Virus record (IMG/VR): IMGVR_UViG_3300045988_097776
DNA length: 64,000 bases
Reading direction: 5' to 3' (one strand)
Origin: a virus
Part shown: piece after piece, positions 3,185 through 59,615 of the stretch
Layout: the number at the start of each line of letters is the position of its first letter
How positions within the stretch are numbered: the stretch's first letter is position 1
The notes under the pieces: generated by a model
Told to the model about the DNA's origin: nothing
Databases searched by the model: none
The model's input: the letters and a program-made list of their open reading frames with translations, nothing else
Program-made: the position numbers and the translations under genes

Positions 3185-3222
3185 GCAATAAAAAAAGAGA
3201 GGTATCTCTACCTCTCTTTTAT
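3185..3222. terminator. rho-independent terminator
   Basis: GAGAGGTA-TCTC-TACCTCTC hairpin flanked by an A-run and a T-run. Confidence 0.6.
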
Positions 3223-3692: not shown

Positions 3693-3699
3693 GGAATAT

Positions 3700-4440
3700 A
3701 TTCCTCTTTTCTTTCCTTTTATATTTATATTATATAATATTATTTTATAAATTGCAACCGATCGGCCCTAGCTTAAAGATCTTTTATTCTAAAATAACTT
3801 CTCTGATTGAGGCATCGACTAGAAAATTCTTAGCTAGAGAATAAGTCTTTTTAATTGTATCTATAAAAGTATAGAAAGGGTGAACATCAAGAAGATTTGC
3901 TGAAAATGAGGCAAATTTTGCTAATTTTTAAGTAATTTTATTAGAAAAATGTGCGTTTTTGCTAGATTTTTAGAGAATTTTCGCTATATTAAGAGAAAAA
4001 CAAGAGGAAAAACCTGCGGACCGATCGGTTTACCTAGCTAAAAGTAGAATTTTCTAGCTATTTTTATTATAAAATCTCGTTATTCCGATCGGCGCCGCAG
4101 AAAAATCTCTCGCTGGTATTTGTTTTTCATAGCAACATCTTTGCTATTGTTAGCTGTATAGGGGATAATGTTAGTCTTATGAACACTTGACAATTTTAAA
4201 TTTTTTTATTATAAAAAATGGACGAGAAAGCCGCTATTGCTGGACCGATCGGGATAAGATAGAAAACCGATCGGGTTATAATATAATTTTGGGAGATTCT
4301 AGACTAAGTTGCGTTATGGCCAACTTGCTATGAAAATTTTGCGCTATGGTCCGATCGGGGAAATTCGGGCCGAGTCGCCCGCGACCGGCCCGCCCGCATA
4401 TTGGGATAAAAAAACCACCCCATTTCTGGGGTGGTTCTTG
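3700..4440. other. 740-bp AT-rich non-coding region with CCGATCGG palindromes and short direct repeats; candidate origin of replication or packaging/regulatory region
   Basis: CCGATCGG at 3758, 4021, 4085, 4245, 4267 and 4351, plus one at 3090 and a CGATCG at 3131. TTTTGCTAnnTTTTTA-like direct repeats at 3911-3990. No ORF on either strand. Confidence 0.5.
4400..4436 (-). terminator. rho-independent terminator (minus strand)
   Basis: CCACCCC-AGAAAT-GGGGTGG followed by TTTTTTT on the minus strand. Confidence 0.65.
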
Positions 4441-4790
4441 TTAGCTTAGAATAACCTGGTATGCCTTGCGGATAATGACTGTTACCATGCGCGGGGGCGT
4501 GTCACAGAGAAAGCGGTCGTTTCTGATAAAATGTCCAATTCCCATATTTTGCCATAAAGTCCGGTTCAAGTCCTCATATCGAGGGGTATTATACTTAGAT
4601 AACCGGATATACCAATCATAGGAAAAAGCACTATCCACAGGCATGGTATAGTCTTTTGCCCGTTTATAATTCCTTGTATGCTCGGCGGCCCGTCTTTCGA
4701 GGTCGTTTGTTGTGCCAATCTTGAGAATATAGCGTCCCTTTACGTCTACATAATGCCCGACGTATAGAAACTCCTTTTCCCGTGTCTGTG
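4441..4790 (-). CDS. GIY-YIG nuclease domain protein (start codon uncertain)
   Basis: The listed 67-aa ORF extends upstream in frame to ...EFLYVGHYVDVKGRYILKIGTTNDLERRAAEH..., which is the GIY-YIG signature. No obvious ATG/GTG/TTG start. Confidence 0.45.
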
Positions 4791-4847
4791 TGCTAACTAT
4801 GGAATACCTCTTTTCTGGTAGGGCTGGGGTAGGCCAGCCCTACCCCG

Positions 4848-5165
4848 TTATTTTTTCGGTTTACGCTTTTGTACAAGCGTTAACTCGAAACTATCCCCAC
4901 CGATAAAAAACGCAATTTGGCGTTCCTTGTTTGTTATGGCAAGGTCAACAATCGAGAATTGACTATTTTTTTCCAAAAAGTCCGCCAGCTCTGCGATTAT
5001 GCCGCCTTTAGTTGCGTTTGGCTTGCGTTGCCGTGGTGTAAATTTGTAGGCGGTAGGGGTTTTTCTTGTGCCAGCATGGGCGAATTTCTGCGCGATTTTC
5101 GCTTTATCGGGCGATAAATCGTATTGAGTTTTTTCACCAGCTTCCACCGCCTTGTCATAGGCCAA
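4848..5165 (-). CDS. hypothetical basic protein, 105 aa
   Basis: ORF track; GC-rich. Confidence 0.4.
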   Translation of the reverse strand: MAYDKAVEAGEKTQYDLSPDKAKIAQKFAHAGTRKTPTAYKFTPRQRKPNATKGGIIAELADFLEKNSQFSIVDLAITNKERQIAFFIGGDSFELTLVQKRKPKK

Positions 5166-5302
5166 TAGCTCCGCCTCCTCCTCTGGTGTCAGTTGGAGAG
5201 GCTTATATCTCGATAACCTCTCGGCGTCAGTGATACGGCTCGATATAGTCTCACCCCCTAAGATAGAGTAGGGCGGGGATTTTCGCCCCGCCCTATACGG
5301 GG

Positions 5303-5704
5303 TTACGCCATCTTAAAGAGAGACTTGCCCTTCTTCTCCTGACAGGTCACACGGCCGTCCAGCTTGAGCATCCGCACAAGGGCGGCGGCCTTCTGAGTGG
5401 AGAAAGCGGCCAGAGAGGGCACAGACTTGAAAATGTCGGTACAGGTCACGCCGTCGGTGTCATCGGGCAGGCCGGCCAGATACTCCATAATCTGCTCCTT
5501 CAGGCTCTCGTTCTCCTGCTGGGTCGGGGTCAGCTTCTTGTCACCGCCGGAGCTATTCTTCTTCCGCAACAGCTCCAGCTCATGGTCAATGACGGTCATG
5601 GCAATCTCCATGGTTGTGCCATGCTTCACCTCCTCACCAGCCAAGAGGGCCTTAATGTCCTCGAAACGCTGGGCCTTAGTGATACGGATTTTCTTCTCGC
5701 TCAT
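5303..5704 (-). CDS. hypothetical protein, 133 aa (GC-rich segment)
   Basis: ORF track; local GC content is well above the window average. Confidence 0.4.
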   Translation of the reverse strand: MSEKKIRITKAQRFEDIKALLAGEEVKHGTTMEIAMTVIDHELELLRKKNSSGGDKKLTPTQQENESLKEQIMEYLAGLPDDTDGVTCTDIFKSVPSLAAFSTQKAAALVRMLKLDGRVTCQEKKGKSLFKMA

Positions 5705-5744
5705 GGTAATACATCCTTTCTGGTTTTTAGGACTGTCCTTGTCC

Positions 5745-6060
5745 TTTGATTATATTGTACCACACTATCGGGAGTTTGTCAAGAGGTTTTTCAAACTTTT
5801 TTCAAGAGCTTTTGCCCTTTACTTGTTTGCCCTCTCTCGTTCCCCTTATAGTGTAACACACTTTGGAGAGTTTGTCAAGCCCTTTTTTATTCACTTTTCA
5901 AGGTTCCTTGCCTTGTTTTCTGTACTTATTATAGCACACTCACAAGGGCTTGTCAAGAGGTTTTTTGAAAGATTTTTGAAAGTTCGCTGTCGCTGTCTGC
6001 CGTTCGTCTCTCTCACTTTCTGTACTTATTGTACCACACCACAAAGCGGATTTCAATTGT
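5745..6060 (-). promoter_or_regulatory. array of 4 tandem near-consensus sigma70 promoters (TTGACA-17-TACAAT/TATAAT, some with TGn) reading leftward
   Basis: Minus strand: TTGACAaactcccgatagtgtggTACAAT at 5752-5780, TTGACAaactctccaaagtgtgTTACACT near 5850-5878, TTGACAagcccttgtgagtgtgcTATAAT near 5929-5956, and TTGAAAtccgctttgtggtgtggTACAAT at 6029-6057. Confidence 0.65.
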
Positions 6061-6096
6061 GAGATCCTCCAAAAGAACGTGATTTTGGGATAGGGT

Positions 6097-6120
6097 TTTT
6101 GTGCAAAATGTTGCACAAAA
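6097..6120. promoter_or_regulatory. perfect 24-bp palindrome TTTTGTGCAAAA-TG-TTGCACAAAA (operator-like) upstream of the promoter array
   Basis: The left half is the exact reverse complement of the right half. The TTGTGCAA motif recurs near other early promoters. Confidence 0.55.
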
Positions 6121-6159
6121 CGGAATCAAATTTTTTGTGCAACATTTACAAGGAAAAAA

Positions 6160-6200
6160 TCGGGTCGCGCCGCCCATGCGCGACCCGCCAAAATATAAAA
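6160..6200 (-). terminator. rho-independent terminator (minus strand)
   Basis: CGGGTCGCGC-ATGG-GCGGCGCGACCCG followed by a T-run on the minus strand. Confidence 0.6.
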
Positions 6201-6227
6201 CAAAAAAAGAAGGCCGAAGCCCTCTTT

Positions 6228-6512
6228 TTATCCGAAAAGGCAGTTATCTAAAAAGTCGAACAGGTGTTCATCCTCGGCGGGGATGGATACCAGTATATCC
6301 CCGTTTTCATCGGGTTCATCATGGCTCCATCCCATACGCTTGATGATTTCAAGCGCCGTGAAAACGGCATCGGGACAAAGGGAAGAAGTATATACAATTC
6401 TTGTTTGCATATTTAACCCTCTTTCTTTGAGTAGAACTGGTCGGCATAAAACTGCATTTCTTTCTGCGTTACCTTGGAAAGCATGGCCTTGATGGTAAAT
6501 ACATCTGGGCAC
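6228..6512 (-). CDS. hypothetical protein, 94 aa
   Basis: ORF track. Confidence 0.4.
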   Translation of the reverse strand: MPRCIYHQGHAFQGNAERNAVLCRPVLLKERGLNMQTRIVYTSSLCPDAVFTALEIIKRMGWSHDEPDENGDILVSIPAEDEHLFDFLDNCLFG

Positions 6513-6592
6513 GTCCGCTCAAGTAGGAAGCGAATAGCCTTATTCTTTAATCCCTGAAACATTTCTTATTTCTCCTTCTACCGGGCGGGGCA

Positions 6593-7417
6593 TTAAGCCC
6601 CGACCCGGATTGTCGGAATCTGCCGCAAACTTGCGGAAAGCTGACGCTGAAAATCTGTCATGGGCGGAAACTCCCGCTTGTTCTCATACAGGGCCTTTCT
6701 CATGGGCTTATGCTGGCGCATACAGTACCACATGATTTCCGCCTCAATCAGAACATCTTCCAGTCCCGTGTGGCTTTCCTCAAAATCAGTGTTGCCGGAG
6801 ATAAACCGCCACACGATTTCCGCAGTCTTGCGGGGAACGCCATTAGCCTGCACATACCCGTGTTCTTCACAGAATTTCTTATAGGTGGGCATCTGGCAAA
6901 TGACATCTTGCATCATTTTCATAATGTCCCAAATTTCCACGCTGTCAAATGGGAACCAATACCGGAATTTGGAACAAGTGACCCAACGCTGAGTGACCCG
7001 AAGGGCGTTATCATCGAAGCGGGCATTATATGCGGCGACCTCCTTAATGCCGTACCGCTCGATAGTGTCCAGCATGGCCTGACGGATTTCATAGGTAGTA
7101 GCCATCTTGCGACTGCCAGCCCGCAATTCCTCTACATACCGGGGGATTTTCCAGTTATAATAGGCCGTCCGCATTAAATCCCGCTCGTCATTGAAAATAT
7201 CCCGATTTACAAAACTTGCGGTTTCGTAAATATTGCCTTTGGTGTCTACGACCGCCCAGCCGCAGTCATATACCAAAACATTTGACATATCCATACGGAC
7301 GCGCTCTGGAGTAATAATTTCCCCATCTTCCCCAATTTCAGCGGGGACAGTCTCGGTTAATGTGTTGGCGGTTTCTGTATCAACCACCAGCACATAATGT
7401 CGGCGTTTATCAATCAT
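6593..7417 (-). CDS. DEDDh 3-prime to 5-prime exonuclease (DnaQ/RNase T-like)
   Basis: Exo I motif VLVVDTETANT, Exo II YNARFD and Exo III HTGLEDV. Length 274 aa. A consensus promoter (TTGACA-17-TATAAT) lies at 7452-7480. Confidence 0.6.
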   Translation of the reverse strand: MIDKRRHYVLVVDTETANTLTETVPAEIGEDGEIITPERVRMDMSNVLVYDCGWAVVDTKGNIYETASFVNRDIFNDERDLMRTAYYNWKIPRYVEELRAGSRKMATTYEIRQAMLDTIERYGIKEVAAYNARFDDNALRVTQRWVTCSKFRYWFPFDSVEIWDIMKMMQDVICQMPTYKKFCEEHGYVQANGVPRKTAEIVWRFISGNTDFEESHTGLEDVLIEAEIMWYCMRQHKPMRKALYENKREFPPMTDFQRQLSASLRQIPTIRVGA

Positions 7418-7590
7418 AATCTATCAAGTCCTTTCTTCTCTTGGTGGTATCATTATAGCACATTTAAGGCTTGGTGTCAAGAGGGATTTTATATTTTTTT
7501 TCTCCGTTGAAAAAGGCGTCGCGATAACCTCTCTCACAAAAGGGACTCTTTACCCTACTCTGGAGAACTTTTTCCTTTCCTCCTGACATG

Positions 7591-7720
7591 ATAATAATAC
7601 CATAGTTTCAGGATAATTGCAAGATGGCATTTTGCACAAGATTTCTGCTTGAAAATTGTGCAACATTACAACAGAAAAAAATGCGGCCCGCGGCGCTCAA
7701 GCGCGGGCCGCTGATTTTCT
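7591..7720 (-). promoter_or_regulatory. promoter-terminator cassette: TTGCAA-17-TATTAT promoter, TTGCACAA/TTGTGCAA dyad motifs and a GC-rich terminator hairpin
   Basis: About 75 bp are nearly identical to 9041-9120. Hairpin GCGGCCCGCGGCGCTCAAGCGCGGGCCGC. Confidence 0.55.
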
Positions 7721-7756
7721 TTATATAAAAAATTCTCCCATTTAGGGAGGATTTTT

Positions 7757-7993
7757 TTAAAACTCTAAAATTGGTGTTTCATCAGGCAGAGCATCTACGC
7801 TGGTGATGGAGATAGATTTATTGTAATCAGTGGAAATTCCTGTCACTCTCTCAATTTCTTTAGTGGCAATATCATACATAATATCGTTTGCAACTGAAGC
7901 CGGGCCTTTTCTATGAATATCGGCCAGCTGTTGGAAGATAGGATGATCGACCTCTAACTCACGCTGGATAGAAATTGAAATTTTAACTCTCAT
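7757..7993 (-). CDS. hypothetical protein, 78 aa
   Basis: ORF track. Confidence 0.4.
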   Translation of the reverse strand: MRVKISISIQRELEVDHPIFQQLADIHRKGPASVANDIMYDIATKEIERVTGISTDYNKSISITSVDALPDETPILEF

Positions 7994-8025
7994 ATAACTT
8001 TTCTTTCTATTGGGAACGCCTTAAA

Positions 8026-8174
8026 TGGCGTTCCCGATTTTGAAGCACTTGGCCGAAGGCGACCAAAGAGAACCGGCCTTGCGCTTGGCATCAGAACGGG
8101 CACGGTCAACATCCTTACCGACACCCACGAACACATGGCCCGCCGCAGTCTTAAAGTAGAAATTCATCATAGTA
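8026..8174 (-). CDS. hypothetical small GC-rich protein, about 49 aa
   Basis: Manual translation: MMNFYFKTAAGHVFVGVGKDVDRARSDAKRKAGSLWSPSAKCFKIGNAI. Confidence 0.35.
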
Positions 8175-8303
8175 AAGCTTCCTTTCTTTTATGAGGGTTA
8201 TCCCCTCTTGATGATTAAATTATACCACAATGCGGTGAGATTGTCAAGAACTTTTTTACGTATTTTCCAGATATGGGGCGGGGATTTCACCCGCCCCTTT
8301 TAT

Positions 8304-8768
8304 TTAGTCCAGATTGTTGATATATTCAATAATGTTTGTAGTTTGGGGGTCTACGGTATCCCCTAAATGCCAGCCGTTTCTAATTTTGCCGTTATCATCA
8401 AAGAGGATAAACGGCGGTTCATAGAAACTACGGAATACACATTTAGCTTTAGTTGTTCCATACGCCACACAATGGCATTTATGGGCCGGAAATTTATGCC
8501 TTGCAAGCCATTCCTTTTTGGCGGCTGTGACTGCTTTCTTATATTCAGGGGGGCTTTCAGGGGGCAACCATGTAATAACTCGAACCTCCCACCCGTTACT
8601 AATTGCGTTTAGAAGCGCATTTCGGAGGGCGTTCATATCCCACATGGGGGCGGCGTCTCGGAATGGGCTGGGGTCTCCATCGCGGAGTTTTTCAAGCCAG
8701 TTGGGGACTGCGTATAGATCTGCAATTGTCCCGTCCATATCAAAGCAGAGCATTTTTTTAGTTATCAT
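8304..8768 (-). CDS. HAD-superfamily phosphatase (5-prime nucleotidase / deoxyribonucleotidase-like)
   Basis: N-terminal CFDMDGTIAD (the DxDGT motif). Length 154 aa. Consensus promoter at 8791-8819. Confidence 0.55.
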   Translation of the reverse strand: MITKKMLCFDMDGTIADLYAVPNWLEKLRDGDPSPFRDAAPMWDMNALRNALLNAISNGWEVRVITWLPPESPPEYKKAVTAAKKEWLARHKFPAHKCHCVAYGTTKAKCVFRSFYEPPFILFDDNGKIRNGWHLGDTVDPQTTNIIEYINNLD

Positions 8769-8796
8769 ATATATAACCTCCTTTTGTTTTATTATA

Positions 8797-9021
8797 CTAC
8801 CTGTTGCCTATCTTGTCAACAAGTTTTTCAAAGAAATTTTTATGCCGATATACCTTATAAGGCATTGACGTATAATCCACATAAATTAGAGGGTCGCGCA
8901 AAAGAATAGCTTGCATATAGATCCCATAATTCTCTGGGGTGGTAGTACCACCAAATTGGCGGCGGTAGATTTCAGCCACAGTTAAACACTCATTAGGCCG
9001 AATAAACTTTGAAGGTTTCAT
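8797..9021 (-). CDS. hypothetical protein, 74 aa
   Basis: ORF track. Promoter TTGCAA-17-TATTAT at about 9041-9075, a duplicate of the 7600 cassette. Confidence 0.4.
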   Translation of the reverse strand: MKPSKFIRPNECLTVAEIYRRQFGGTTTPENYGIYMQAILLRDPLIYVDYTSMPYKVYRHKNFFEKLVDKIGNR

Positions 9022-9204
9022 TTAGTGTCCCTCCTTCTTTCTGTACTAATAATACCATAATTTAAGGATAATTGCAAGATGACATTTTGCACAAGATTTC
9101 AAGTCAAAAATTGTGCAGAACTTACAAACAAGAAAACTCGGCGCGCTGTGAGCGTCAGCGCGCCGTCGAAATTTTGGTATAAAAAAAGAGGGCCGAAGCC
9201 CTCT

Positions 9205-9684
9205 TTAATTTTCTGCAAATTGAGCTAGAAATTGCGCAGAAAGTCGAACCATATCATGCGCTGATTCTTTATCGTTTTTATAGCAAATAAAGCCGATTAC
9301 CTCACCTTCTGCAATAATAGGAGTAACAAACAACGATTTTCCCTTCCATTCAGTACCCCAATTACGAATATTGAACCATTCATCCGGGGTCTTTGACATT
9401 CCGAAGGGGCGAGGGCCGCACAAAAGACTTGAATTATCAAAAACCGATGCTAAAATGCCGTTAATGCTTAAAACTTTTTGAATATGTGCGGCCTGAGGAG
9501 CAAAAGAAGATAGTAGGGAATATTTCTTGAAAACCACCCCGCCATCTTCAATAAAGATTTCTAGCGGGTCGCCTTCCCGAATATTCATATTCCGACGAAT
9601 TTCCTTAGGAATTACTACCCGGCCGAGATCATCAATGCGCCGCACAATGCCAGTTACTTTCATTTTTTTTATTAGAGAGGGCAA
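9205..9684 (-). CDS. SpoVT/AbrB-family transcriptional regulator (swapped-hairpin N-domain plus GAF-like C-domain)
   Basis: N-terminus MKVTGIVRRIDDLGRVVIPKEIRRNMNIREGDPLEI is the AbrB/MazE/SpoVT signature. Length 159 aa. Terminator at 9170-9205. Confidence 0.7.
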   Translation of the reverse strand: MPSLIKKMKVTGIVRRIDDLGRVVIPKEIRRNMNIREGDPLEIFIEDGGVVFKKYSLLSSFAPQAAHIQKVLSINGILASVFDNSSLLCGPRPFGMSKTPDEWFNIRNWGTEWKGKSLFVTPIIAEGEVIGFICYKNDKESAHDMVRLSAQFLAQFAEN

Positions 9685-9714
9685 GGCTATTGCTTGCCCT
9701 CTCTACCTCCTTCC

Positions 9715-10110
9715 TTAAAACTCCTTGCGCAGTTCCTCAAGCATGGCTGTTAAGGTGTTCATATCTCCACCCATTTCCAATTTGACGCACATGAGCCGGG
9801 TCTGCTCGTTAATCCATGTGTTAATCTCTGCGATTTCATCATCCATTTTTTCCTTGGCCGGAGTATAAATGCCGCAAGTGCAGGTCTGGATGACATTCTC
9901 GCAATATCTGGAAGTCTTATAGCCCTTAGCCTGCATTTCCGCCTGGATAGTATCGCCCAGCTCATTGGCCGACTTGACGATAGCCTCCTTAAAAGCCTCC
10001 AGCGCGTCGAACTCTGGCTGATACCTCTCCCGGATAGCCGCCTCCTTACAGGCAGAAATCTTGCGAACCTCGTCACGAACATATTCTTCAATTCTCTTAG
10101 TAACACGCAT
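9715..10110 (-). CDS. hypothetical protein, 131 aa
   Basis: ORF track. Consensus promoter TTGACA-17-TATACT at 10176-10204 and terminator at 9680-9715. Confidence 0.45.
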   Translation of the reverse strand: MRVTKRIEEYVRDEVRKISACKEAAIRERYQPEFDALEAFKEAIVKSANELGDTIQAEMQAKGYKTSRYCENVIQTCTCGIYTPAKEKMDDEIAEINTWINEQTRLMCVKLEMGGDMNTLTAMLEELRKEF

Positions 10111-10344
10111 TTCTAAAAACTCCCTTTCTGTTTTAATTTGAGAGGTTTTACTCGTTTCCCCTCTTTACATTTAATAGTATAGCAGATTTCGGGAGAAGTG
10201 TCAATCGTCAAAATGCACAACATTTGCAAACATATTTTGTTGAAACTGCTAATCATAGAAAATTCGGATCGCGCCAACCCTGCGCGATCCGCCCAATATT
10301 ATGCAAATAAAAAAGAAGCTCCCGGAAAACCGGGAGCATTTCTT

Positions 10345-10584
10345 TTACATCATAGGGAAATCAATGCCAATTTCGTTAGCTCTGCGGTCAGCCTCTTCGT
10401 CGAAGACCGCCTTCAAAATAGTGGCCGCGTCATCGGGAGTACAGGTATCTTCACGCAGGAACTTCCCCAAAGACTGAACCAAAGCGGAGTCGGCCGAACT
10501 CCGGTCTATCAAACGCATTGCTGTATGAAGAGCAATCAGACTGTCCCTATCTTCCTCGGTCATCTTGGGCATCTTGATAGTCAT
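10345..10584 (-). CDS. hypothetical protein, 79 aa
   Basis: ORF track. Promoter TTGACA-17-TATAAT at 10635-10663. Terminator GCTCCCGG-AAAA-CCGGGAGC at 10318-10345. Confidence 0.45.
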   Translation of the reverse strand: MTIKMPKMTEEDRDSLIALHTAMRLIDRSSADSALVQSLGKFLREDTCTPDDAATILKAVFDEEADRRANEIGIDFPMM

Positions 10585-10838
10585 AACATACTTCCTTTCT
10601 GGTTTTATAGAGTTTTCCTTCTCTTGATGGTATTATTATATCATAAAGGGTTGGATTTGTCAACCCTTTATATCGGAGTATTTATAATATATCCAAACAT
10701 TATAATTTCGGCGGCGAAAAGTATAGCAAGCAGGAAATGGTTTTTTATTATAGCGGTCACATACTGGATAGTCAGGCAAATGGCAAGAACAATTATGATA
10801 AAAGTGGTCATGCTAGTTCCTCCTGCGGTAGAGAGGGA

Positions 10839-11078
10839 TTATACCCTCTCTACCTCGATAATTTCCATGTCGAAATTTTCCCAGCAGGCCCCAAGGAGCA
10901 TATCATGCCGCAGGTCGTTTTCGCTTTCGTAGTCCATATCTTCCAGAATGTCCTGCCAGTTATCGGGATTATATTGCTTTTTCAGCCAGTCCCAACCGGC
11001 GCCACGAGCCAGCCGCAGGTCATCAGATACACAGATAATATTCTCACGATTATCAGCCATAACCACATAGCTTTTCAT
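10839..11078 (-). CDS. hypothetical acidic protein, 79 aa
   Basis: ORF track. Promoter TTGACT-17-TATACT near 11121-11160. Confidence 0.4.
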   Translation of the reverse strand: MKSYVVMADNRENIICVSDDLRLARGAGWDWLKKQYNPDNWQDILEDMDYESENDLRHDMLLGACWENFDMEIIEVERV

Positions 11079-11324
11079 TTTCTTTTACTCCCTTTCTTGA
11101 GGGCTTTTGTTCTCCCCTCTTGATGGTTTAAGTATATCAGAATGAGAGAGAAAAGTCAAGCGATTTTGGGAAATTTCTTTCCGTCAATTTCACCAATAAA
11201 TCGAGCCAAAATTTGTGCAAATTACCTCTTGACAAAAAATTCCGGCCGCTGCGCTCATGCGCGGCCGGCTGAACAATATATTTTGAATTGGAAAAGAAAT
11301 TCCTCCCATTTTGGGAGGAAAATC

Positions 11325-11462
11325 TCAATCTACATATTCTCGATTTAAAACTTTTACAACCTCTTCAGGTTTACGTCGAGACCGGAAAAGAGCATCTTCA
11401 TAGGAATAACCAGAGATATTGTCGGTCGAGCCATTTTCAAGCAAAATCTCAAATTCATACAT
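11325..11462 (-). CDS. hypothetical small protein, about 45 aa (internal start of the listed ORF)
   Basis: A promoter -10 and TSS fall inside the listed ORF. AAGGAAG RBS before the internal ATG (MYEFEILLENG...). Confidence 0.3.
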   Translation of the reverse strand: MYEFEILLENGSTDNISGYSYEDALFRSRRKPEEVVKVLNREYVD

Positions 11463-11518
11463 ATCTCTCAACTTCCTTTCTTTTGATAACTTAATTTTAA
11501 CATAAGAATTTCGGGAAG

Positions 11519-11755
11519 TCAATCGGTACTTTCAACAATTTTCATTCCATTTGCTTGTATAATTCGCATAGCTTCTTCAAGAGAAGTATTGTCAACGGAG
11601 CCACAGTCGATACAAATATATTTTCTGCCATCCTTTACCATAGTAGTGAAATAATATTCTTGACCAGAAACAAGGCCCATCTACTCTCGTAGTCTTACGG
11701 GAATCATGATGCGCCCACTTGAATCCAATTTCCTTGAGAAAGTAGTTTCTTGCAT
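11519..11755 (-). CDS. AbrB/MazE-family DNA-binding protein, 78 aa, with 1 in-frame TAG
   Basis: Manual translation: MQETTFSRKLDSSGRIMIPVRLRE[Q]MGLVSGQEYYFTTMVKDGRKYICIDCGSVDNTSLEEAMRIIQANGMKIVESTD. The GRIMIP motif is the swapped-hairpin signature. Confidence 0.55.
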
Positions 11756-11843
11756 TTTGCTAAATAAATTCTAGTGACCTAGGTTCGTGCGAAAAACGAC
11801 TCCATCACGGGAATCGCCGATTTGTAACAATCGGAGGGAATAA

Positions 11844-11960
11844 TTACCACTCGCAAGGCATTTTCTGGCAGAACTGAGCCATAGGACAATTCTTACAAGA
11901 ATCCTAGTTCAAACAGAACTCCAGAATGACCGCAAGAGCTTTCAGCACTTCTAAGGTCAT
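11844..11960 (-). CDS. small Cys-rich protein, 38 aa, 1 in-frame TAG
   Basis: AAGGAG RBS. Product MTLEVLKALAVILEFCLN[Q]DSCKNCPMAQFCQKMPCEW. Confidence 0.35.
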
Positions 11961-12135
11961 TAGAAAACTCCTTTCTTTATTTTTCTATATATATTATAAA
12001 ATATTTTTTTAAAAAAAGCAAGGACTGACTTATGCCAGCTCCAGCCTCTGTAACCAGATAAGGTGATATTTCCCCAGTCTTGCCAAAACTGTTCCGTATC
12101 CCTTATTAGTCCAAACAGTGGAACCAATAGGATAT

Positions 12136-12387
12136 TCACGCGGAAGTCTCTCGATAGTCATTGATAATCCCCTTTTCTGTAAAGAATCCGACAAGATGTT
12201 CTGCTGCACTGGACTTATGCGGAGTTATCAACAACCACGCACCGCGAAGATTATCAATAGTCGATAAAGACCAGTCCGCGCCCATCTGACTAATTAAGCA
12301 CTCGAAACTTGCTCGATCCTCAAGAGAGTTAAACGAAACTACATATTTTCCCATGCGGAAATCGACCTCCATAGAATTTTTTATCAT
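12136..12387 (-). CDS. hypothetical protein, 83 aa; a coupled 43-aa ORF follows at 12004-12135
   Basis: ORF track. ATGA start/stop overlap at 12133-12138 suggests translational coupling with the downstream small ORF MTIERLPREYPIGSTVWTNKGYGTVLARLGKYHLIWLQRLELA. Confidence 0.4.
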   Translation of the reverse strand: MIKNSMEVDFRMGKYVVSFNSLEDRASFECLISQMGADWSLSTIDNLRGAWLLITPHKSSAAEHLVGFFTEKGIINDYRETSA

Positions 12388-12426
12388 GGGGAGTGGAAGT
12401 CATAGACCTCCACTCCCGCAGGTTTC

Positions 12427-12666
12427 TTATGCGTTAATGTAGATATTAACGCCACCTTCTTCTCTCATTTCAATCTCAGTCACCTGCTTCTTGAACAGGG
12501 CGCTGAGGTCATCGCCATAAAAGTCACCGCCGAGCTGGAGCTTCCATTCCTTGTCAAACCGGAAATGTGCGCCGGTATTGCTGTCGATTACCTGAATAGC
12601 CGCATCCTCTTCCAGACAGAAAGAGTATTGCCGGAACAAAATCACAACGTCTTTGAAGCACACCAT
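12427..12666 (-). CDS. hypothetical protein, 79 aa
   Basis: ORF track. Promoter TTGACA-17-TATATT at about 12705-12745. Confidence 0.4.
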   Translation of the reverse strand: MVCFKDVVILFRQYSFCLEEDAAIQVIDSNTGAHFRFDKEWKLQLGGDFYGDDLSALFKKQVTEIEMREEGGVNIYINA

Positions 12667-12922
12667 TTCTTTTACTTCCTTTCAAATTCTTTTTGTGGTC
12701 TGTCTCTCTGGACAAGTATAATATACCATACCCACAAAGGAATGTCAAGCGATTTCGGGAGAAAAATTCTCGGCAGATTGCACAAACTTTTGGCCATATA
12801 ATTGTTGAAACTGCCGAACAAACAAAAATTCGGGCCGCGGCGCACGCTGGCGGCCCGGCGAAAAGTCAATATGGGAAAGTGCACAAAAATATCCGGCAAT
12901 CTTTGTGTAGATTACCGGATAG

Positions 12923-13066
12923 AATATTAAAACATCACAGTAAAGAAGTTATACTCACTATGCTGTGGATTTGGATAGCTGTTATCTGCTACTATGTCAG
13001 CCCAGCTCAAAGCAATCCAGAGAAGGAGAGCGGCGCAAAGGCCGCCTCCTATATACCGTAGCACTC
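12923..13066 (-). CDS. small membrane protein, about 47 aa
   Basis: Manual translation: MRVLRYIGGGLCAALLLWIALSWADIVADNSYPNPQHSEYNFFTVMF. Start overlaps the stop of the upstream gene. Confidence 0.3.
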
Positions 13067-13453
13067 TCATACCGCAGGCTCCTTCCCCAGAAGGTCATAC
13101 CGTCCAGGGATTTCGGCATTAAGCCTATCCCATTCTTTGGCAGTTACCCTGTCATACTCATTATAATAGTTATCCCGAATGATATAAAGCTGTTCTGTGG
13201 TGTCCTTATCCAGAGCGGCCTTATACTCGTCAAGAGAGGCAGGACGAGTGTGAAGCTTGCTGTTGATATACCGTGCATTGATAAAGGCCCAATGTGGCAT
13301 GACGGCCTTAGAGATAGCATTAAAAGCGTCTAAGTCAAGGATGATACCATCATCCACAGCGGCCGCCTTCACATTCATGGAGTAACGGAGAACACGCACG
13401 AACTCAGGCTTATTAAAGGTGGGATTGGTGTAATACTTGATGAAGTTAGACAT
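13067..13453 (-). CDS. hypothetical protein, 128 aa
   Basis: ORF track; AAGGAT RBS. Confidence 0.45.
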   Translation of the reverse strand: MSNFIKYYTNPTFNKPEFVRVLRYSMNVKAAAVDDGIILDLDAFNAISKAVMPHWAFINARYINSKLHTRPASLDEYKAALDKDTTEQLYIIRDNYYNEYDRVTAKEWDRLNAEIPGRYDLLGKEPAV

Positions 13454-13508
13454 ATCTTTTATCCTTTCTCCCCGTATAGCCGTTAGGTCAGCTTCTTGTG
13501 GTATATGG

Positions 13509-13772
13509 TTACTTGATAGCTTCGCCGGTAGACAGGTCTACAATCCAATAGTCAGGATTGACAAGCTCATGGTCTACTCTCCATCTTGCGTGTGCAAAAG
13601 TAGACGGCTCATAGTATCGCATTTTGTCACCCACTAAAACCTGCAACTGATACCTCATAATACCGCCTTCTTTCTTTTGATTATTATAACCCTGCCTTGC
13701 CTTGGGTTTTGCAAGGCAGGGTTTATAAACTACTGCTGATTGAGTTCTTTTTGCTGGTCTTTCGTTGCCCAA
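13509..13772 (-). CDS. hypothetical protein, 87 aa
   Basis: ORF track. Confidence 0.35.
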   Translation of the reverse strand: MGNERPAKRTQSAVVYKPCLAKPKARQGYNNQKKEGGIMRYQLQVLVGDKMRYYEPSTFAHARWRVDHELVNPDYWIVDLSTGEAIK

Positions 13773-14170
13773 TCAAGAGAGGTTCTGACCGTCGGACGCT
13801 TGCGGTATTGCTCCGCCTCTGCCTTTGTGCCGCCTTTAGCTAAAGCGTAGGCTTTCCAGTCTATCGCTCCTTTAGCGGTAGTCTCTTTATAGACCACCGC
13901 ATGAGCGGCGCCCTTTATCTGGACTGTGCCGTACAGATAAGAGGTCTTATCCGTGGTCTTGAACTCTTTCCTCAAACGGGTGAAAAGCTCTTTCGCTTTG
14001 GCCTTGGCCGCTTTCTCTGCAACCTCTGCCGCCGCTACTGCTTGCTTAGCGGCTAGGTACTCCATGATGACCTTCCTATCATCATTGGCAAAATCAATCT
14101 TTTTCATACTCTTTTGACTCCCTTTCTTTTTGTGGTGTGATTCTCTTTTGTTCTGTCTGTATTGTATCAA
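13730..14170 (-). CDS. hypothetical protein, 146 aa (coiled-coil N-terminus; possibly a Gam-like nuclease inhibitor)
   Basis: ORF track. Consensus promoter TTGACA-17-TACAAT at about 14150-14200; a second TTGACA-17-TAAACT at about 14270-14300. Terminator at 13690-13730. Confidence 0.4.
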   Translation of the reverse strand: MIQYRQNKRESHHKKKGSQKSMKKIDFANDDRKVIMEYLAAKQAVAAAEVAEKAAKAKAKELFTRLRKEFKTTDKTSYLYGTVQIKGAAHAVVYKETTAKGAIDWKAYALAKGGTKAEAEQYRKRPTVRTSLDWATKDQQKELNQQ

Positions 14171-14592
14171 GTCTTTTAAGACTTGTCAATACTTTTTTTG
14201 AAAATTTTTAATTTTCAAGGTACATTGAGTTTTGCCCTGTCCTCTACTGGACAAGTCCAGTTTACACCCGTTTGCCCTGTTTGTCAATAGTTTTTTGAAA
14301 TTTCTTTCTCTCTCTTTTGCACAAAATAAACATTGTTCAACTGTGCAATTTGCATAAATCCTTTACGCGCGCGTATTCCTTTAGGGCGTGGCTTTTTACT
14401 TTCATACTTTAATGAGTGAAAGAGGCTGACTACACTTCAGCACTTTACCATGTGAAAGGGGAGGGTGTATTTTGGGAAAAACTGGAAATTTTTTCGCAAA
14501 TTTGTTCTGCCACGCCATTTCAAAATCTAAATCGTACTTTCAATCTCAATAACGAAAAAAAGATGAAAGGCTAAACTTTTAACCTTTCATCT

Positions 14593-14715
14593 TTTCTCCA
14601 CAACTAGGGCAAAAATTATATTCTCCTGCTTCATCATAGGTAACTAATAAATCGCCATCTTCCTTATAACACGAATGAGTGAATCCGCAATTTAAACACA
14701 AAGAATATAAGGCTC
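14593..14715 (-). CDS. small zinc-ribbon protein, about 40 aa (start uncertain)
   Basis: Product ...CLNCGFTHSCYKEDGDLLVTYDEAGEYNFCPSCGEKMKG contains CxxC...CxxC. A strong terminator hairpin follows on the minus strand at 14560-14600. Confidence 0.3.
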
Positions 14716-14759
14716 CATTCCCCTTAAATTTTATAATAAGCCATTTTCCATTCTATCCC

Positions 14760-15197
14760 TTAATGGTATAATTGATATTTTCTGCCAATCTTATCAATCT
14801 CCTCAGCTTCCATTGGCCTAAATCCAATACAAGTGAGAGTCCCTTCAGGACTCTCTTTTTCCAGCTCTGTCCTGCAAGCATCGTAAATCAAAAAGTAATC
14901 TTTATACTCCTCCATACCGAGCTCTTTAGCTGCTTCGACCGCCCGCAATAAATCATTCTTATTTTTCGCTCGACAAACAACTTTAGTTTCTGCTTCTATT
15001 ATCCAATTATGGTATAAATCTGTATCGAGACTTACATTCACATGATACATAATACCATCTCTTTCCCTAACTACTTCTTTGCTTCCCCAAAGTATTTTCT
15101 CTAAAAGAAAAGCAATAGAAGCATGGGAAACTTGTGCGGCCAGCTTACCTGGAGACATATTTAAATCTTTTCTAGCTATAATTAACTGTTTATACAT
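14760..15197 (-). CDS. peptidyl-tRNA hydrolase, PTH2 family
   Basis: IIARKDLNMSPGKLAAQVSHASIAF matches the PTH2 R-x-D-L-x-M-x-x-G-K-x-A-A-Q-x-x-H-A core. The C-terminal half aligns with the human PTRH2 fold (…KVV..A.....L......A...G…). Confidence 0.8.
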   Translation of the reverse strand: MYKQLIIARKDLNMSPGKLAAQVSHASIAFLLEKILWGSKEVVRERDGIMYHVNVSLDTDLYHNWIIEAETKVVCRAKNKNDLLRAVEAAKELGMEEYKDYFLIYDACRTELEKESPEGTLTCIGFRPMEAEEIDKIGRKYQLYH

Positions 15198-15946
15198 TCT
15201 TTACCTGCTTTCAAAAATGCCCTAAAATTCTGGGAGTTGCGGTCAGGAATTGCAAAATAAATATTTGGAATATTATAATTGCGGGCTGCGCCTATGAGCA
15301 AGGTTGCGACCGTATACGGATCTTGCATAAAAACTCCACAACCCCAGGCTCCCGCGATTAGATTTTCCACACCGTTTTCCTCAGCAATCTGATACATAAA
15401 GTGAATTCGATCTTCAAGAACTCTATCATTCTCGCTCTTACTCACACTCTGGTATCTATGCGCCGTTCGGAAATTCGGGGCCGCACAAGTTATAATATCT
15501 GCTTCCTTTTGTTTGTCATTGCGCTCGAATACTACGCTAGGAGAATACAGCGCTCTATTTAAATATAAAGCCTTATTTAATCTCTGTCGATTCCATGCGT
15601 AATACGTTTCATCAAAAGCAAGAAGGATAGGGTAAAGATTGGATTCATGACAAAGAGCCTCTTCCTGCGCGGGACTACCTCCTAGAAAAAATCCACCCGG
15701 GTTTTTATAACTGGCGTAGTTAAGAATTGCTGTTCTACCATTGTTAGATAAATTGAATAGGCAAGATACACTATCCATATCTGTTAGAGTAAAAGCTGGT
15801 TTCTGATTGCCGGATTCATGCTGTGTAAAAGAATCTGGACTATATACATATGTGCGCTCGATAGATAATTTAGTGTTTGCGGCAAGTCTAGTTTTAATAT
15901 CTTCATAATGCGCTCGTGCCTTGATTGCGCGCTCTTGTTTTGTCAT
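15182..15946 (-). CDS. macrodomain-fold poly(ADP-ribose) glycohydrolase-like protein (bacterial PARG/DUF2263 family)
   Basis: NPGGFFLGGSPAQEEALC matches the bacterial PARG signature G-G-x(6-8)-Q-E-E. Length 254 aa. AAAGGAGG RBS. Overlaps the PTH2 start, so the two probably form an operon. Confidence 0.55.
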   Translation of the reverse strand: MTKQERAIKARAHYEDIKTRLAANTKLSIERTYVYSPDSFTQHESGNQKPAFTLTDMDSVSCLFNLSNNGRTAILNYASYKNPGGFFLGGSPAQEEALCHESNLYPILLAFDETYYAWNRQRLNKALYLNRALYSPSVVFERNDKQKEADIITCAAPNFRTAHRYQSVSKSENDRVLEDRIHFMYQIAEENGVENLIAGAWGCGVFMQDPYTVATLLIGAARNYNIPNIYFAIPDRNSQNFRAFLKAGKECINS

Positions 15947-16145
15947 CGCGGCCTCCTTTTATAAAAATGCCGTTGGGCAAAATTAAATAATTGTCTTATT
16001 TTATTTTTCAAATAAAGTGTGTTGAGTTTTTAATTCCTCGATCTTCTACTTTAACTCTTTGTTTTCTTTTATTACTTTTGCATATTCGCATGAATCATCG
16101 CATCTAATTGGATCATACTATTGATGCAATCTAAGATAACAATAA

Positions 16146-16505
16146 TCAATGCATGGGTTCATATTTACACCCCTTTATTCTACAATCTAGTAAACACTGT
16201 CCTGTAGCTCCATCACAGGGAATTGCATCAGGGTAATCCTCAAAATAAGACGAAGCTAATAGGACTTCATACCCGAGTTCTCGCAATATTCTTTCTGCGA
16301 TATATCTATTCCTCAGCTTTACCCATTCTTCTCTATTTATTTTTGTTTCTCTGTATATTTCTCTGGATTTCTCCATATCTACTGTTATGCTGCCATCAAT
16401 ATTAGTCTTAAATGTTGAATCCTGTGTACGATAAAATTCTCGAAAAGGATTTTCAATATGAAGAACCTCTCTAGCATAATTATCAAAATCTTCTGAGAAT
16501 TTCAT
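16146..16505 (-). CDS. hypothetical protein, about 119 aa
   Basis: ORF track; the likely start ATG at 16503-16505 overlaps the FolD stop (TAATG). Confidence 0.4.
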   Translation of the reverse strand: MKFSEDFDNYAREVLHIENPFREFYRTQDSTFKTNIDGSITVDMEKSREIYRETKINREEWVKLRNRYIAERILRELGYEVLLASSYFEDYPDAIPCDGATGQCLLDCRIKGCKYEPMH

Positions 16506-17296
16506 TATCTTCGCGCCTGTTTCGCTAACTATAAGCAATTTTTCATCAACCCCAATCTAGTCAATAATCCCACCCCTCCGGGCACAGGAGTTGACCACAC
16601 TTCATTTCTCTTTGCAATATTTTCAAGTTCAACAAAATCGCCTTGAATAAAATTCGCCTAATTTCTACGAATACCAACATCAACAACAATAGCGTGAGGG
16701 CAAGCCTCTCTTGTCAAAGTAAAATCTCCAACTGCGGATACTACTAAATCTGCTATTCTTGCTAAATAAAGCTTCGCATTTACATTTGTTTTACTGTGAC
16801 AGATAGATACAGTCATATTTCTCGCCAACAACTCTTTCGCCATTGGCTTACCAACTATATTACTTCTACCTAATATTAAAGCACTTTTACCTTCATACTT
16901 AAAACCACAGTCATCAAGATAGTCTACTATTCCTCTTACCGTTGCCGGTAAAACAAGAGTAGAAGAAGTTAAACCGTCGCAGTCTTTTATCGTAGGAATT
17001 ACATCAATAGAAAAAGAACTCAATGAATCTCTTAGTGGCATTTGTGCTATAATACAATCAGTATCTATACTATTTATGTAATTATTTAAATCTGCGGGAG
17101 TCCAGTGTTCTGGAACTTTAATCACGCTTACTGGCCATCCTAATTCATTAAAGTCGTCTACTTTTTTCTATATATAAATCTAATTTCCGGCATCCCCGTT
17201 AGTTGCATCAATTATGGTCAATGATGGCTTGACATCGGACTGCCGCAATTCATCTTTCTATTGTTTAAAATATTCTTTTATGTTAATCTATTGCAT
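16505..17296 (-). CDS. folD: bifunctional methylenetetrahydrofolate dehydrogenase/cyclohydrolase FolD, 263 aa, 3 in-frame TAG
   Basis: The listed 155-aa ORF ends at a TAG. Reading through gives ...GRSNIVGKPMAKELL...VVDVGI...PVPGGVGLLT, the FolD C-domain. Upstream through two more TAGs gives the N-domain MQQINIKEYFKQQKDELRQSDVKPSLTIIDATNGDAGNQIYIQKK. Confidence 0.8.
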
Positions 17297-59585: not shown

Positions 59586-59615
59586 AAAGATACAGAACTT
59601 AACCGCAGAAAAATA

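Follow-up and report, generated by a model that had tools for sequence, protein, structure and literature searches.

Genes and predicted promoters of the leftward module

The window, the whole 64,000-nucleotide stretch of viral DNA that was analysed, carries a putative early module on its minus strand, in which ~12 predicted promoter-to-terminator units of 1-4 genes each can be drawn, comprising ~22-23 genes in all (Table 1). The initial annotation had described this organisation as mono-cistronic, which is overstated, as only four or five of the units hold a single gene. The pairing of each promoter with a terminator is only roughly true, as several promoters (10663, 8819 and 11522) directly follow a gene without one. 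Similarly, the GC-rich hairpin and T-run said to follow most genes are enriched (29 terminator-like hairpins in 4300-14400, compared to 10.9 +/- 3.1 expected), but the ends at 5295, 8297 and 4848 have a hairpin without a T-run.

Table 1 Features in and around the leftward module; promoters and terminators are predictions, and positions are those of the window
Feature	Position	Strand	Details
Putative early module	4300-14360	-	small leftward genes, mostly orphan, readable in standard code
P14287	14259-14287	-	TTGACA-17-TAAACT, 10/12; tandem pair, upstream member, before unit 1
P14189	14161-14189	-	TTGACA-17-TACAAT + TG, 11/12; four genes 14107-12927
P12748	12720-12748	-	TTGACA-17-TATATT + TG, 11/12; three genes 12666-12030
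P11522	11494-11522	-	TTGACT-17-TAAAAT + TG; 45-aa gene 11462-11325
P11159	11131-11159	-	TTGACT-17-TATACT + TG, 10/12; genes 11078-10839, 10811-10668
P10663	10635-10663	-	TTGACA-17-TATAAT + TG, 12/12; gene 10584-10345
P10204	10176-10204	-	TTGACA-17-TATACT + TG, 11/12; gene 10110-9715, SpoVT/AbrB-like gene 9663-9205
P9077	9049-9077	-	TTGCAA-17-TATTAT + TG, 9/12; gene 9021-8797
P8819	8791-8819	-	12/12, without TG; HAD-type nucleotidase-like gene 8768-8304
P8247	8219-8247	-	12/12 + TG; genes 8170-8021, 7993-7757
P7622	7594-7622	-	TTGCAA-17-TATTAT + TG; tandem pair, upstream member
P7480	7452-7480	-	12/12 + TG; DnaQ-like exonuclease gene 7417-6593 and two small genes
Promoter stack (four)	5754-6056	-	all read into E21
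Stack member	6056-6028	-	TTGAAA/TACAAT, 10/12
Stack member	5956-5928	-	12/12
Stack member	5878-5850	-	TTGACA/TACACT, 10/12
Stack member	5782-5754	-	TTGACA/TACAAT, 11/12
E21, 133 aa	5303-5704	-	conserved orphan behind the stack; predicted C-terminal winged-helix fold
AT-richer island	11519-11998	-	inside the module; AT-rich promoter motif 11998-11982 and two genes
Cys-rich ORF, 38 aa	11960-11844	-	island; one in-frame TAG
AbrB/MazE-like gene	11755-11519	-	island; one in-frame TAG
Sigma70-like promoter and gene	18464-19568	+	promoter 18464-18492, gene 18522-19568; 9 in-frame TAG codons
Intrinsic terminator	12890-12921	-	gene-proximal, after four-gene unit; dG -19
Terminator	12005-12045	-	after three-gene unit
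Terminator	11300-11320	-	after gene 11462-11325
Terminator	10318-10337	-	after gene 10584-10345
Terminator	9185-9206	-	after SpoVT-like gene
Terminator	7735-7749	-	after gene 7993-7757
Terminator	6204-6229	-	after gene 6410-6228
GC hairpin a	12817-12857	-	with T-run; cassette start
GC hairpin b	11228-11268	-	GC-rich terminator hairpin
GC hairpin c	10251-10291	-	indel junction versus L023 at 5' edge
GC hairpin d	9125-9165	-	GC-rich terminator hairpin
GC hairpin e	7670-7710	-	gene-replacement junction versus L023 at 5' edge
GC hairpin f	6147-6187	-	GC-rich terminator hairpin
GC hairpin g	4360-4397	-	far end of module
Inverted repeat	14317-14348		TTGCACAA-N16-TTGTGCAA type; upstream of P14287; candidate operator
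Inverted repeat	12778-12809		TTCAACAA...TTGTGCAA; upstream of P12748
Inverted repeat	11189-11220		degenerate; upstream of P11159; read from sequence
Inverted repeat	10213-10244		end 9 nt before P10204 -35
Inverted repeat	9087-9118		end 9 nt before P9077 -35
Inverted repeat	7632-7663		exact; end 9 nt before P7622 -35
Inverted repeat	6111-6142		exact; upstream of promoter stack

The minus strand of 5700-14400 contains 19 sigma70-type sites matching at 10/12 or better, 12 of them with TG, compared to 1.26 and 0.07 expected from 300 dinucleotide-preserving shuffles of that strand. At 11/12 or better there are nine (0.08 expected) and at a perfect 12/12 five (0.003 expected), while the plus strand of the same interval holds no site at 10/12 or better. 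The intergenic promoter sites number 16; the spacer is 17 bp in every one, TG is present in 14, and an ORF with a strong Shine-Dalgarno of the GAAAGGAAG/AAGGAGG type begins 16-59 nt downstream. All 14 sites listed in the initial annotation were recovered on the minus strand, at or a few bases from where it placed them, including its stack of four within 5745-6060. Two intergenic sites, 11522-11494 and 7622-7594, were absent from it.

We found the array conserved across 23 related IMG/VR contigs, and likewise in phAss-1, a published phage that is the nearest annotated relative (its major capsid protein is 51% identical). Sites at 11/12 or better number 7-21 on the gene strand of the 23 related loci versus 0-5 on the other, and 46 versus 4 in phAss-1, where 26 are perfect. 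At the exonuclease-gene promoter P7480, the -35, TG and -10 are kept in the 23 relatives while the spacer and flanks diverge, and a stack of 3-4 promoters lies upstream of the E21 ortholog in 14 of 14 relatives examined. The consensus pooled from 245 distinct sites displays an A-tract, the -17 T of TRTG and an A at +1, none of which played a part in selecting the sites. The excess over chance, the strand specificity, the nearby ORF with its Shine-Dalgarno and the conserved position support the earlier proposal that leftward early genes are driven via host RNA polymerase, and the intergenic sites are very probably real host primary-sigma promoters.

A phage sigma factor or modified polymerase might instead recognise these promoters, or they might act mainly as high-affinity sinks titrating host polymerase off host genes. 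They are unusually near consensus and stacked 3-4 deep, which would bind polymerase very tightly, and the window does encode a protein assigned to a PHROG family annotated as sigma factor (gene 18522-19568). However, no sigma domain was found in that gene by a Pfam search, and its nine in-frame TAG codons would make the product impossible before suppression; the hexamers, 17-bp spacing and TRTG are the exact housekeeping consensus. As to a sink, every intergenic site is followed by a Shine-Dalgarno and an ORF at the proper distance, so that productive expression is the simpler reading. We consider recognition by phage machinery, or titration, highly improbable and retain host-polymerase expression.

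Homologs of E21, the gene behind the stack, number at least 200, and a Pfam domain occurs in none of them. Its AlphaFold2 model has a pLDDT of 90, and Foldseek gave hits, weak at E-values of 3e-3 to 3e-2, to PerR, ArsR, Z-alpha and F-93. The model indicates a small winged-helix protein with the winged helix at the C-terminus.

Code usage, composition and the AT-rich motif

The phage reads TAG as glutamine. ORFs of 200 aa or longer rise from 14 to 37 once TAG is read as sense, late genes contain 24 TAG per 1000 codons, TAG makes up 51% of their Gln codons, and TAG and Gln codons interchange at aligned positions of orthologs. The early module has no in-frame TAG in 2052 codons, a figure that is partly by construction, the ORFs having been called in the standard code. 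These standard-code ORFs, however, occupy the stretches from promoter to terminator. The module is also distinct in composition, with GC of ~0.45 versus ~0.33 in the remaining window and GC3 of 0.515 versus 0.259 in late genes. That genes behind the promoters are readable in the standard code fits expression ahead of any code switch. Sigma70-like sites at 17685, 17710 and 18464 also precede TAG-containing genes, so promoter type and code usage do not correspond one-to-one.

The initial annotation had also proposed a second promoter class, AT-rich and without a -35. In two of the four window copies a -35-like hexamer does stand 17 bp away (TTGCAA at 3757, TTGACC at 17685), and in phAss-1 and related loci the AT-rich 17-mer TATAATATATATAGAAA belongs to perfect TTGACA-17-TATAAT promoters, as their -10 and initial transcribed sequence. 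We accordingly rejected the motif as a class of its own. The copies at 11998-11982 and near 17650 precede genes with in-frame TAG, and the timing of those genes may be set by translation rather than transcription. In orthologs of the two island genes one TAG is retained, and the Gln-aligned position differs.

A repeated regulatory cassette

Seven units open with a repeated cassette consisting, in order, of a GC-rich terminator hairpin, a 32-bp inverted repeat (TTGCACAA-N16-TTGTGCAA) and the promoter. A covariance model of the hairpin found 91 copies, all on the gene strand, and covariation is strong: positions are 94% paired across copies, falling to 30-43% when partners are slid, and double-change cells number 134 versus 46 in shuffles. 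Comparison with the nearest relative, L023, revealed that three of four gene-sized indels in this one pair adjoin GC hairpins and carry whole genes; at hairpin g, L023 has an extra 890-bp unit between two GC hairpins. In L001 and L002 the cassette at 12664-12916 has an 87% identical counterpart, whereas the genes downstream of it are missing there.

Gene content varies widely among the relatives, and this, together with the elevated GC and GC3 and the promoter and terminator of each unit, could suggest that the block consists of horizontally acquired "morons", foreign host-like units in an AT-rich phage, expressed constitutively or from a prophage with no programmed early class. Two proteins are indeed assigned to PHROG families whose category is "moron, auxiliary metabolic gene and host takeover". 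Against acquisition, a single homologous cassette in one orientation runs across the units, which points to spread inside the lineage and not to independently captured units. phAss-1 shows this split too, its GC-rich genes standing behind consensus promoters along the entire 80-kb replication and tRNA arm, a core phage function; E18, E21, E22, E3 and E4 are core members kept in all relatives examined; and the window showed neither an integrase nor any lysogeny gene. An origin as morons thus seems unlikely to us.

Proposed early module and its relation to known systems

We favor, at a probability of about 0.8, the reading that a large tailed phage with TAG as a glutamine codon carries its early module, of the host-takeover type, in this region. 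Against this reading, searches of PHROGs and Pfam matched no early protein to a characterised host-takeover protein. The host of this uncultured gut phage is probably among gut Clostridia: Clostridia are the predicted host of phAss-1 (PMC10607447), and the SpoVT-like gene has bacterial homologs in Oscillospirales metagenome-assembled genomes. After DNA entry, unmodified host RNA polymerase with its primary sigma would recognise ~16 near-consensus promoters, each with an A-rich tract upstream of TTGACA, then a 17-bp spacer and TRTG-TATAAT, with +1 being an A, and would transcribe ~12 short units, each of 1-4 small genes. With strong ribosome-binding sites, codon usage like that of the host and no in-frame TAG, these genes would be translatable before a phage amber suppressor is available. 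Intrinsic terminators, often in tandem pairs, would insulate each unit, the second being the conserved GC-rich hairpin that opens the cassette, and recombination between cassette copies would exchange whole gene units among related phages. The most conserved unit is the one with 3-4 stacked promoters before the small, predicted winged-helix protein.

As in code 15 phages and phAss-1 (Phassvirus, PMC10607447), which has the same one-strand promoter array, the late genes read TAG as Gln. For such stop-codon-recoded phages, the model of Borges et al. proposes that standard-code-compatible genes come first (bioRxiv 10.1101/2021.08.26.457843); the word "promoter" is absent from that work and from the phAss-1 paper (PMC10607447). 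It is from sequence only that we connect host-type consensus promoters with GC-rich composition and TAG-free genes. Near-consensus host promoters stacked ~80-120 bp apart where early transcription starts, a design giving very high polymerase affinity, resemble those of T7 and T5. The T7 early promoters A1, A2 and A3 are tandem and strong, and the early promoters of T5 are strong too. However, here the stack reads into a single small gene, for a predicted winged-helix protein, inside the module and not, as far as is known, at the genome end, and the host would be Gram-positive.

Temperate Bacillus phage SPbeta carries SPBRE operator repeats, a 15-bp motif bound by the recombinase-fold repressor MrpR (PMC10516654). 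As in SPbeta, a large Firmicute siphovirus, a short conserved element recurs here in many intergenic promoter regions, and by analogy the 32-bp inverted repeat, a candidate operator, may be a functional analog of SPBRE, although it is longer and no MrpR-like gene was seen here. The host-takeover module of Bacillus phage SPO1 comprises 24 small genes in the terminal redundancy (PMC10531801). The module described here likewise gathers some two dozen small genes, most of them orphans, in a large phage of a probable Firmicute host. Stewart et al. (1998) reportedly described early transcription of the SPO1 module from primary-sigma promoters of the host, as many short terminator-ended operons, features that are predicted here. 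SPO1 differs in its standard code and hmU DNA, and PHROGs and Pfam searches of the early proteins gave no homology to known phage families.

The PeSL (promoter-early stem-loop) cassettes of T4-type phages (Arbiol et al. 2010, PMC2839356; Comeau et al. 2014, PMC4122927) are likewise small repeated units, in which a GC-rich stem-loop terminator accompanies an early promoter of sigma70-like consensus and an AT-rich upstream tract. Both cassettes cluster in a hyperplastic stretch of orphan genes, and in both, gene-sized indels between close relatives have junctions at cassettes. In contrast to PeSLs, the cassette described here lies in a phage that is not a T4-type myovirus, with a probable Firmicute rather than Gram-negative host, and lacks sequence homology to them; its stem-loop stands ~60-110 bp upstream of the promoter, which in PeSLs contains or overlaps it, and the 32-bp inverted repeat, missing from PeSLs, is placed between the two. 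The promoter array is of a known kind, the ordinary early-gene design of large lytic phages, built here from a repeated and apparently reshuffled regulatory cassette.

Predicted host-type promoters of the early module

The initial annotation described about fourteen near-perfect sigma70 promoters ahead of the small leftward genes of the early module, and every listed site was recovered on the minus strand, within a few bases of its first assignment, by a consensus scan and by a second scan. Five of them are perfect TTGACA-17-TATAAT sequences (5956-5928, 7480-7452, 8247-8219, 8819-8791 and 10663-10635), four match at 11 of 12 positions, four at 10, and one, which carries the TG, at 9 (9077-9049). 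Two further intergenic sites were found on the same strand (11522-11494 and 7622-7594). Using 300 dinucleotide-preserving shuffles of the minus strand of 5700-14400 as the null, we observed 19 sites with at least 10 of 12 matches (1.26 expected), 12 such sites with TG (0.07), nine with at least 11 matches (0.08) and five with all 12 (0.003). The enrichment amounts to 15-fold at 10 or more matches and to more than 100-fold at 11 or more. The plus strand of 5700-14400 contains no site with at least 10 of 12 matches.

All 16 intergenic sites, with 9-12 of 12 matches, have the TTGACA-like and TATAAT-like hexamers 17 ± 1 bp apart that characterize primary-sigma promoters; the spacer is 17 bp in each, and the extended -10 TG is present in 14/16. 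The TRTG and the A-rich UP-like tract of strong Gram-positive promoters were likewise found, and the sites are suitably oriented and spaced, with leaders of 16-59 nt reaching ORFs that have Shine-Dalgarno sequences. In a consensus pooled from 245 distinct sites, T-g-T-G stands ahead of TATAAT. Four further features played no part in selecting the sites: the region from about -40 to -60 holds A-tracts, position -17 is the T of the Gram-positive TRTG motif, the predicted +1 is an A, and the leader is rich in purines. Judged from its sequence, this promoter type points to a Firmicute host. Hairpins in the 5' leaders were considered as mRNA stabilizers and set aside, because only some leaders fold (dG 0 to -11). 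An Rfam scan of the window gave no family at gathering score, and the short RNAs predicted to arise between the stacked promoters thus have no match among known RNAs. Upstream of the late genes, no convincing common promoter motif was found.

The exonuclease of the early module is encoded, at 76-98% identity, in 23 IMG/VR loci, which carry 7-21 sites with at least 11 of 12 matches on the gene strand vs 0-5 on the opposite strand. In the promoter of the exonuclease gene, the relatives differ in spacer and flanks but have kept TTGACA, TG and TATAAT/TATACT. A stack of three to four promoters precedes the ortholog of E21 (the gene at 5303-5704) in 14/14 relatives examined; in the more distant group, it is made up of three perfect promoters at intervals of 112 and 122 bp. 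A megablast search of 5000-15000 against GenBank phages returned no match, and relatives surfaced only by protein-level search. The closest annotated phage is phAss-1 (OQ749652), whose major capsid protein is 51% identical. It is a 136-kb gut phage using code 15, in which TAG is read as Gln; it encodes three amber-suppressor tRNAs, and its host is predicted to belong to the Clostridia (PMC10607447). We counted 46 sites with at least 11 of 12 matches on one strand of phAss-1 (26 of them perfect) vs 4 on the other, extending across its GC-rich replication and tRNA arm. The bacterial homologs of the SpoVT-like gene of the window come from metagenome-assembled genomes of Oscillospirales and other Clostridia, which lends weak support to the same host range as that of phAss-1.

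Predicted transcription units and terminators, and a repeated cassette

A mono-cistronic organization had been proposed for the early genes. We read about 12 predicted transcription units on the minus strand, which are indeed short but include operons of up to four genes, so that a strict rule of one gene per promoter was given up.

Transcription units of the early module, all on the minus strand; promoters (P) are named by their 5' coordinate
Promoter	Genes	End of unit
P14287 + P14189	four	terminator 12921 + GC hairpin 12857
P12748	three	terminator 12039
AT-rich promoter	two TAG-containing genes, 11960-11519	no end seen ahead of P11522
P11522	one	terminator 11320 + hairpin 11268
P11159	two	no terminator; P10663 directly after
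P10663	one	terminator 10337 + hairpin 10291
P10204	two, including SpoVT/AbrB-like regulator	terminator 9206 + hairpin 9165
P9077	one	no terminator; P8819 within 3' end of gene
P8819	one, HAD-type nucleotidase-like	GC hairpin 8297 without T-run
P8247	two	terminator 7749 + hairpin 7710
P7622 + P7480	DnaQ-like exonuclease + two small genes	terminator 6229 + hairpin 6187
four stacked promoters, 6056-5754	E21, then E22	GC hairpins without T-run after each (5295, 4848)

The further claim that most genes are followed by a terminator was borne out in part. Terminator-like hairpins are enriched in 4300-14400 (29 vs 10.9 ± 3.1 expected), and about 14 sites on the minus strand combine a GC-rich stem-loop with a T-run (dG -10 to -26 kcal/mol), but at three gene ends the hairpin has no T-run. 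With a covariance model of the GC hairpin, we retrieved 91 copies from 19 sources, each of them on the gene strand. Within this family, 94% of cells are paired, double changes occur in 7/10 pairs, and compensatory cells number 134 vs 46 in shuffles, while slid controls pair at 30-43%. This covariation marks the GC hairpin as a selected structure, and its form with a T-run is most simply read as a putative intrinsic terminator. A second hairpin family, GGGCGGGG-loop-CCCCGCCC, occurs at three gene ends (5269-5297, 6583-6609 and 8275-8302), where the gene strand shows no T-run. One copy, at 8275-8297, carries a T-run on the opposite strand and may thus stop antisense transcription.

Seven units open with a homologous cassette, in which a hairpin, an inverted repeat and a promoter follow one another in that order. 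The hairpin is GC-rich, with a 10-bp stem followed by a T-run. The 32-bp inverted repeat, TTGCACAA-N16-TTGTGCAA, has fixed spacing and a variable centre, and the -35 of the promoter begins 9, ~29 or ~50 nt beyond it. Homologous copies of the cassette number 6-7 in the window and 3-7 per related locus, and cassettes take up roughly 3% of the sequence. Conservation of the inverted repeat extends to phAss-1, and in several copies its centre lies near -61.

A presence/absence matrix showed that the gene content of the early block is strongly variable among relatives, with many genes confined to the closest of them. The gene at 8304-8768 has been translocated, and in most relatives it is found beyond the opposite end of the exonuclease gene. 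A single genome pair was compared in detail, the window and its nearest relative, L023; of four gene-sized differences, three lie directly against GC hairpins. L023 contains an extra 890-bp unit between two hairpins, corresponding to window position ~4397; the gene at 7757-7993 is swapped there for an unrelated membrane-protein gene, with the junction exactly at hairpin 7710; and an extra AbrB-type gene is inserted at hairpin 10294. Furthermore, cassette 12664-12916 is 87% identical to its counterparts in L001 and L002, two related loci where the genes behind the cassette are absent. Indel junctions at cassettes are behaviour reported for the promoter-early stem-loop (PeSL) cassettes of T4-type phages (PMC2839356). 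The additional AbrB/SpoVT-type gene of L023, at 6740-7130, stands at a cassette junction that has no such gene in the window, and several paralogous AbrB-fold regulators therefore circulate in these early modules.

Genetic code, composition and the AT-rich promoters

The phage reads TAG as a sense codon for Gln. Stop-to-stop frames of at least 200 aa number 14 under the standard code vs 37 with TAG read through, the latter including proteins of 2899 aa (103 in-frame TAG) and 1306 aa (32). TAG aligns with Gln codons of orthologs and makes up 51% of Gln-type codons in late genes. In contrast, in-frame TAG is absent from 2052 codons of the early block, for which the late-gene rate predicts ~50, and TAG serves as a genuine stop in two of its genes. 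The in-frame TAG of conserved late genes, aligned with Gln, and the TAG-free block together make this a code-15 phage with an early block readable in the standard code. The leftward block marked by the promoters, at ~4.3-14.3 kb, also differs in composition, with a GC content of 0.43-0.47 vs ~0.33-0.35 elsewhere in the window and a GC3 of 0.515 vs 0.259 in late genes. phAss-1 has the same composition gradient (GC 0.35 in the late arm vs 0.50 in the early and replication arm). TAG-rich late genes lie within 18500-56000 (+), with up to 103 in-frame TAG per gene. TAG-free, GC-richer genes are also found among those for structural proteins of the highly expressed type, including the major capsid gene (26490-27542), 31285-32679 and 25781-26470. 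A tRNA scan of the window detected no tRNA, suppressors included, and no tmRNA.

The initial annotation had set apart a second, possibly later, promoter class consisting of AT-rich -10-like elements with no -35, a distinction that we do not uphold. The four sites share the 17-mer TATAATATATATAGAAA, exactly at 933-917 and 11998-11982 and as variants at 3734-3718 and near 17650, and in two of the four a -35-like hexamer lies 17 bp away (TTGCAA at 3757; TTGACC at 17685). In phAss-1 and related loci, the same 17-mer forms the -10 and initial transcribed sequence of perfect TTGACA promoters, indicating that the AT-rich sites are a subtype of the same promoter family. The copy at 11998 precedes genes for a 38-aa Cys-rich peptide and an AbrB/MazE-like protein, each with one in-frame TAG. 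In these two very small, conserved genes (11519-11960, minus strand) of an otherwise TAG-free block, and in their orthologs in loci L001-L023, the single TAG falls on Gln-aligned codons that differ between lineages: 19 or 32 in the Cys-rich peptide, and 25, 32 or 40 for the AbrB-like protein; the lineage L007 lacks it. The gene at 18522-19568, which has nine TAG codons, lies behind a sigma70-like promoter and belongs to a PHROG family annotated as sigma factor; we did not retain that assignment, as it comes from the PHROG annotation only, with no Pfam sigma domain. The timing of these TAG-containing genes may be set by translation, through suppressor supply, rather than by promoter class.

The more novel element of the array is the conserved 32-bp inverted repeat together with the embedded, TAG-containing AbrB-like gene. 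We consider it unlikely that the cassette represents a new kind of regulated mobile early unit that couples the transcription program to the code switch. Under such a scheme, the inverted repeat would act as an operator, and the AbrB-family gene, with its single in-frame TAG, would be translatable only after the amber suppressor builds up; its product, on binding the operators, would switch off the early promoters or change their programme. The repeat might alternatively be bound by a host factor or by the heavily promoted E21. The latter, of 133 aa, has at least 200 homologs, none annotated. Its AlphaFold2 model (pLDDT 90) has a C-terminal winged-helix domain, for which Foldseek returned PerR, ArsR, Z-alpha and SSV1 F-93, agreeing in fold class with weak scores (E 3e-3 to 3e-2), making E21 a candidate DNA-binding protein by its predicted fold. 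As a binder of the inverted repeat, E21 was rejected: phAss-1 carries the repeat, yet no E21 homolog could be detected in it, which leaves the link unsupported.

Encoded proteins and comparison with known early regions

Most early products are orphans, and because Pfam and PHROGs searches were mostly empty, no specific host-takeover function can be assigned to them. The last early gene, 4444-4830 (-), has a weak Pfam match (E 1.4e-4) to the T5orf172 domain, which is related to GIY-YIG. The palindrome CCGATCGG occurs seven times in 3090-4358 vs 0.23 expected, with 6/7 copies in an AT-rich non-coding stretch of ~650 bp just past the end of the module; these copies may mark an origin of replication or a group of operators. 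Just upstream of the module, an operon at 14760-17125 (-) encodes a PTH2 peptidyl-tRNA hydrolase (14760-15197), a microbial-type PARG, or ADP-ribose glycohydrolase (15182-15946), and a FolD-like dehydrogenase/cyclohydrolase (16505-17125). The PARG and PTH2 proteins could counter host defence or translation stress. A reverse transcriptase gene at 57959-59176 (-) (Pfam RVT_1, YMDD motif) adjoins AAC-rich repeats and genes for Ig-like/lectin-like proteins (59263-61949 (-) and 62275-63264 (+)), and the locus looks like a diversity-generating retroelement targeting tail or receptor-binding proteins.

Strong early promoters of host type, arrayed together with terminators, are a textbook feature of phages, known from T4, T5, T7 and SPO1. 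The core finding is therefore expected, and the array in the window would function like those of these phages. The cluster of small early genes behind host-sigma promoters resembles the host-takeover module of SPO1, but no protein match to SPO1 gp37-60 was found in PHROGs or Pfam. The comparable modules of SPO1 and T5 lie in terminal repeats. The early block is a defined place to hunt for host-takeover or anti-defence proteins, and its predicted promoters and terminators offer strong parts, ready for use in gut Clostridia.

In a proposed scheme, recoded phages begin by expressing genes readable in the standard code (bioRxiv 10.1101/2021.08.26.457843), and the coincidence of host-consensus promoters with a GC-rich, TAG-free block is an expected corollary of this published model. 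The papers on phAss-1 and on the recoding model of code-15 phages make no mention of promoters (PMC10607447; bioRxiv 10.1101/2021.08.26.457843), so that the coincidence seems unreported. With host-consensus promoters, host-like GC3 and the lack of TAG in one block, the code-switch model gains independent support at the level of sequence.

The cassettes resemble PeSLs in recurring as composites that join a strong early promoter to a stem-loop terminator, in lying in a hyperplastic, orphan-rich block and, for the window and L023, in forming the junctions of indels and replacements. However, the stem-loop of T4-type PeSLs lies within or overlaps the promoter, whereas the hairpin in the window lies 60-110 bp upstream of it, with the inverted repeat in between. 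Given this different layout and no homology to T4 PeSLs, the cassette is PeSL-like in its working and not a member of that family. PeSL-like shuffling by promoter-terminator cassettes is found beyond the T4-type phages of Gram-negative bacteria, which suggests a convergent genome architecture in orphan-gene regions.
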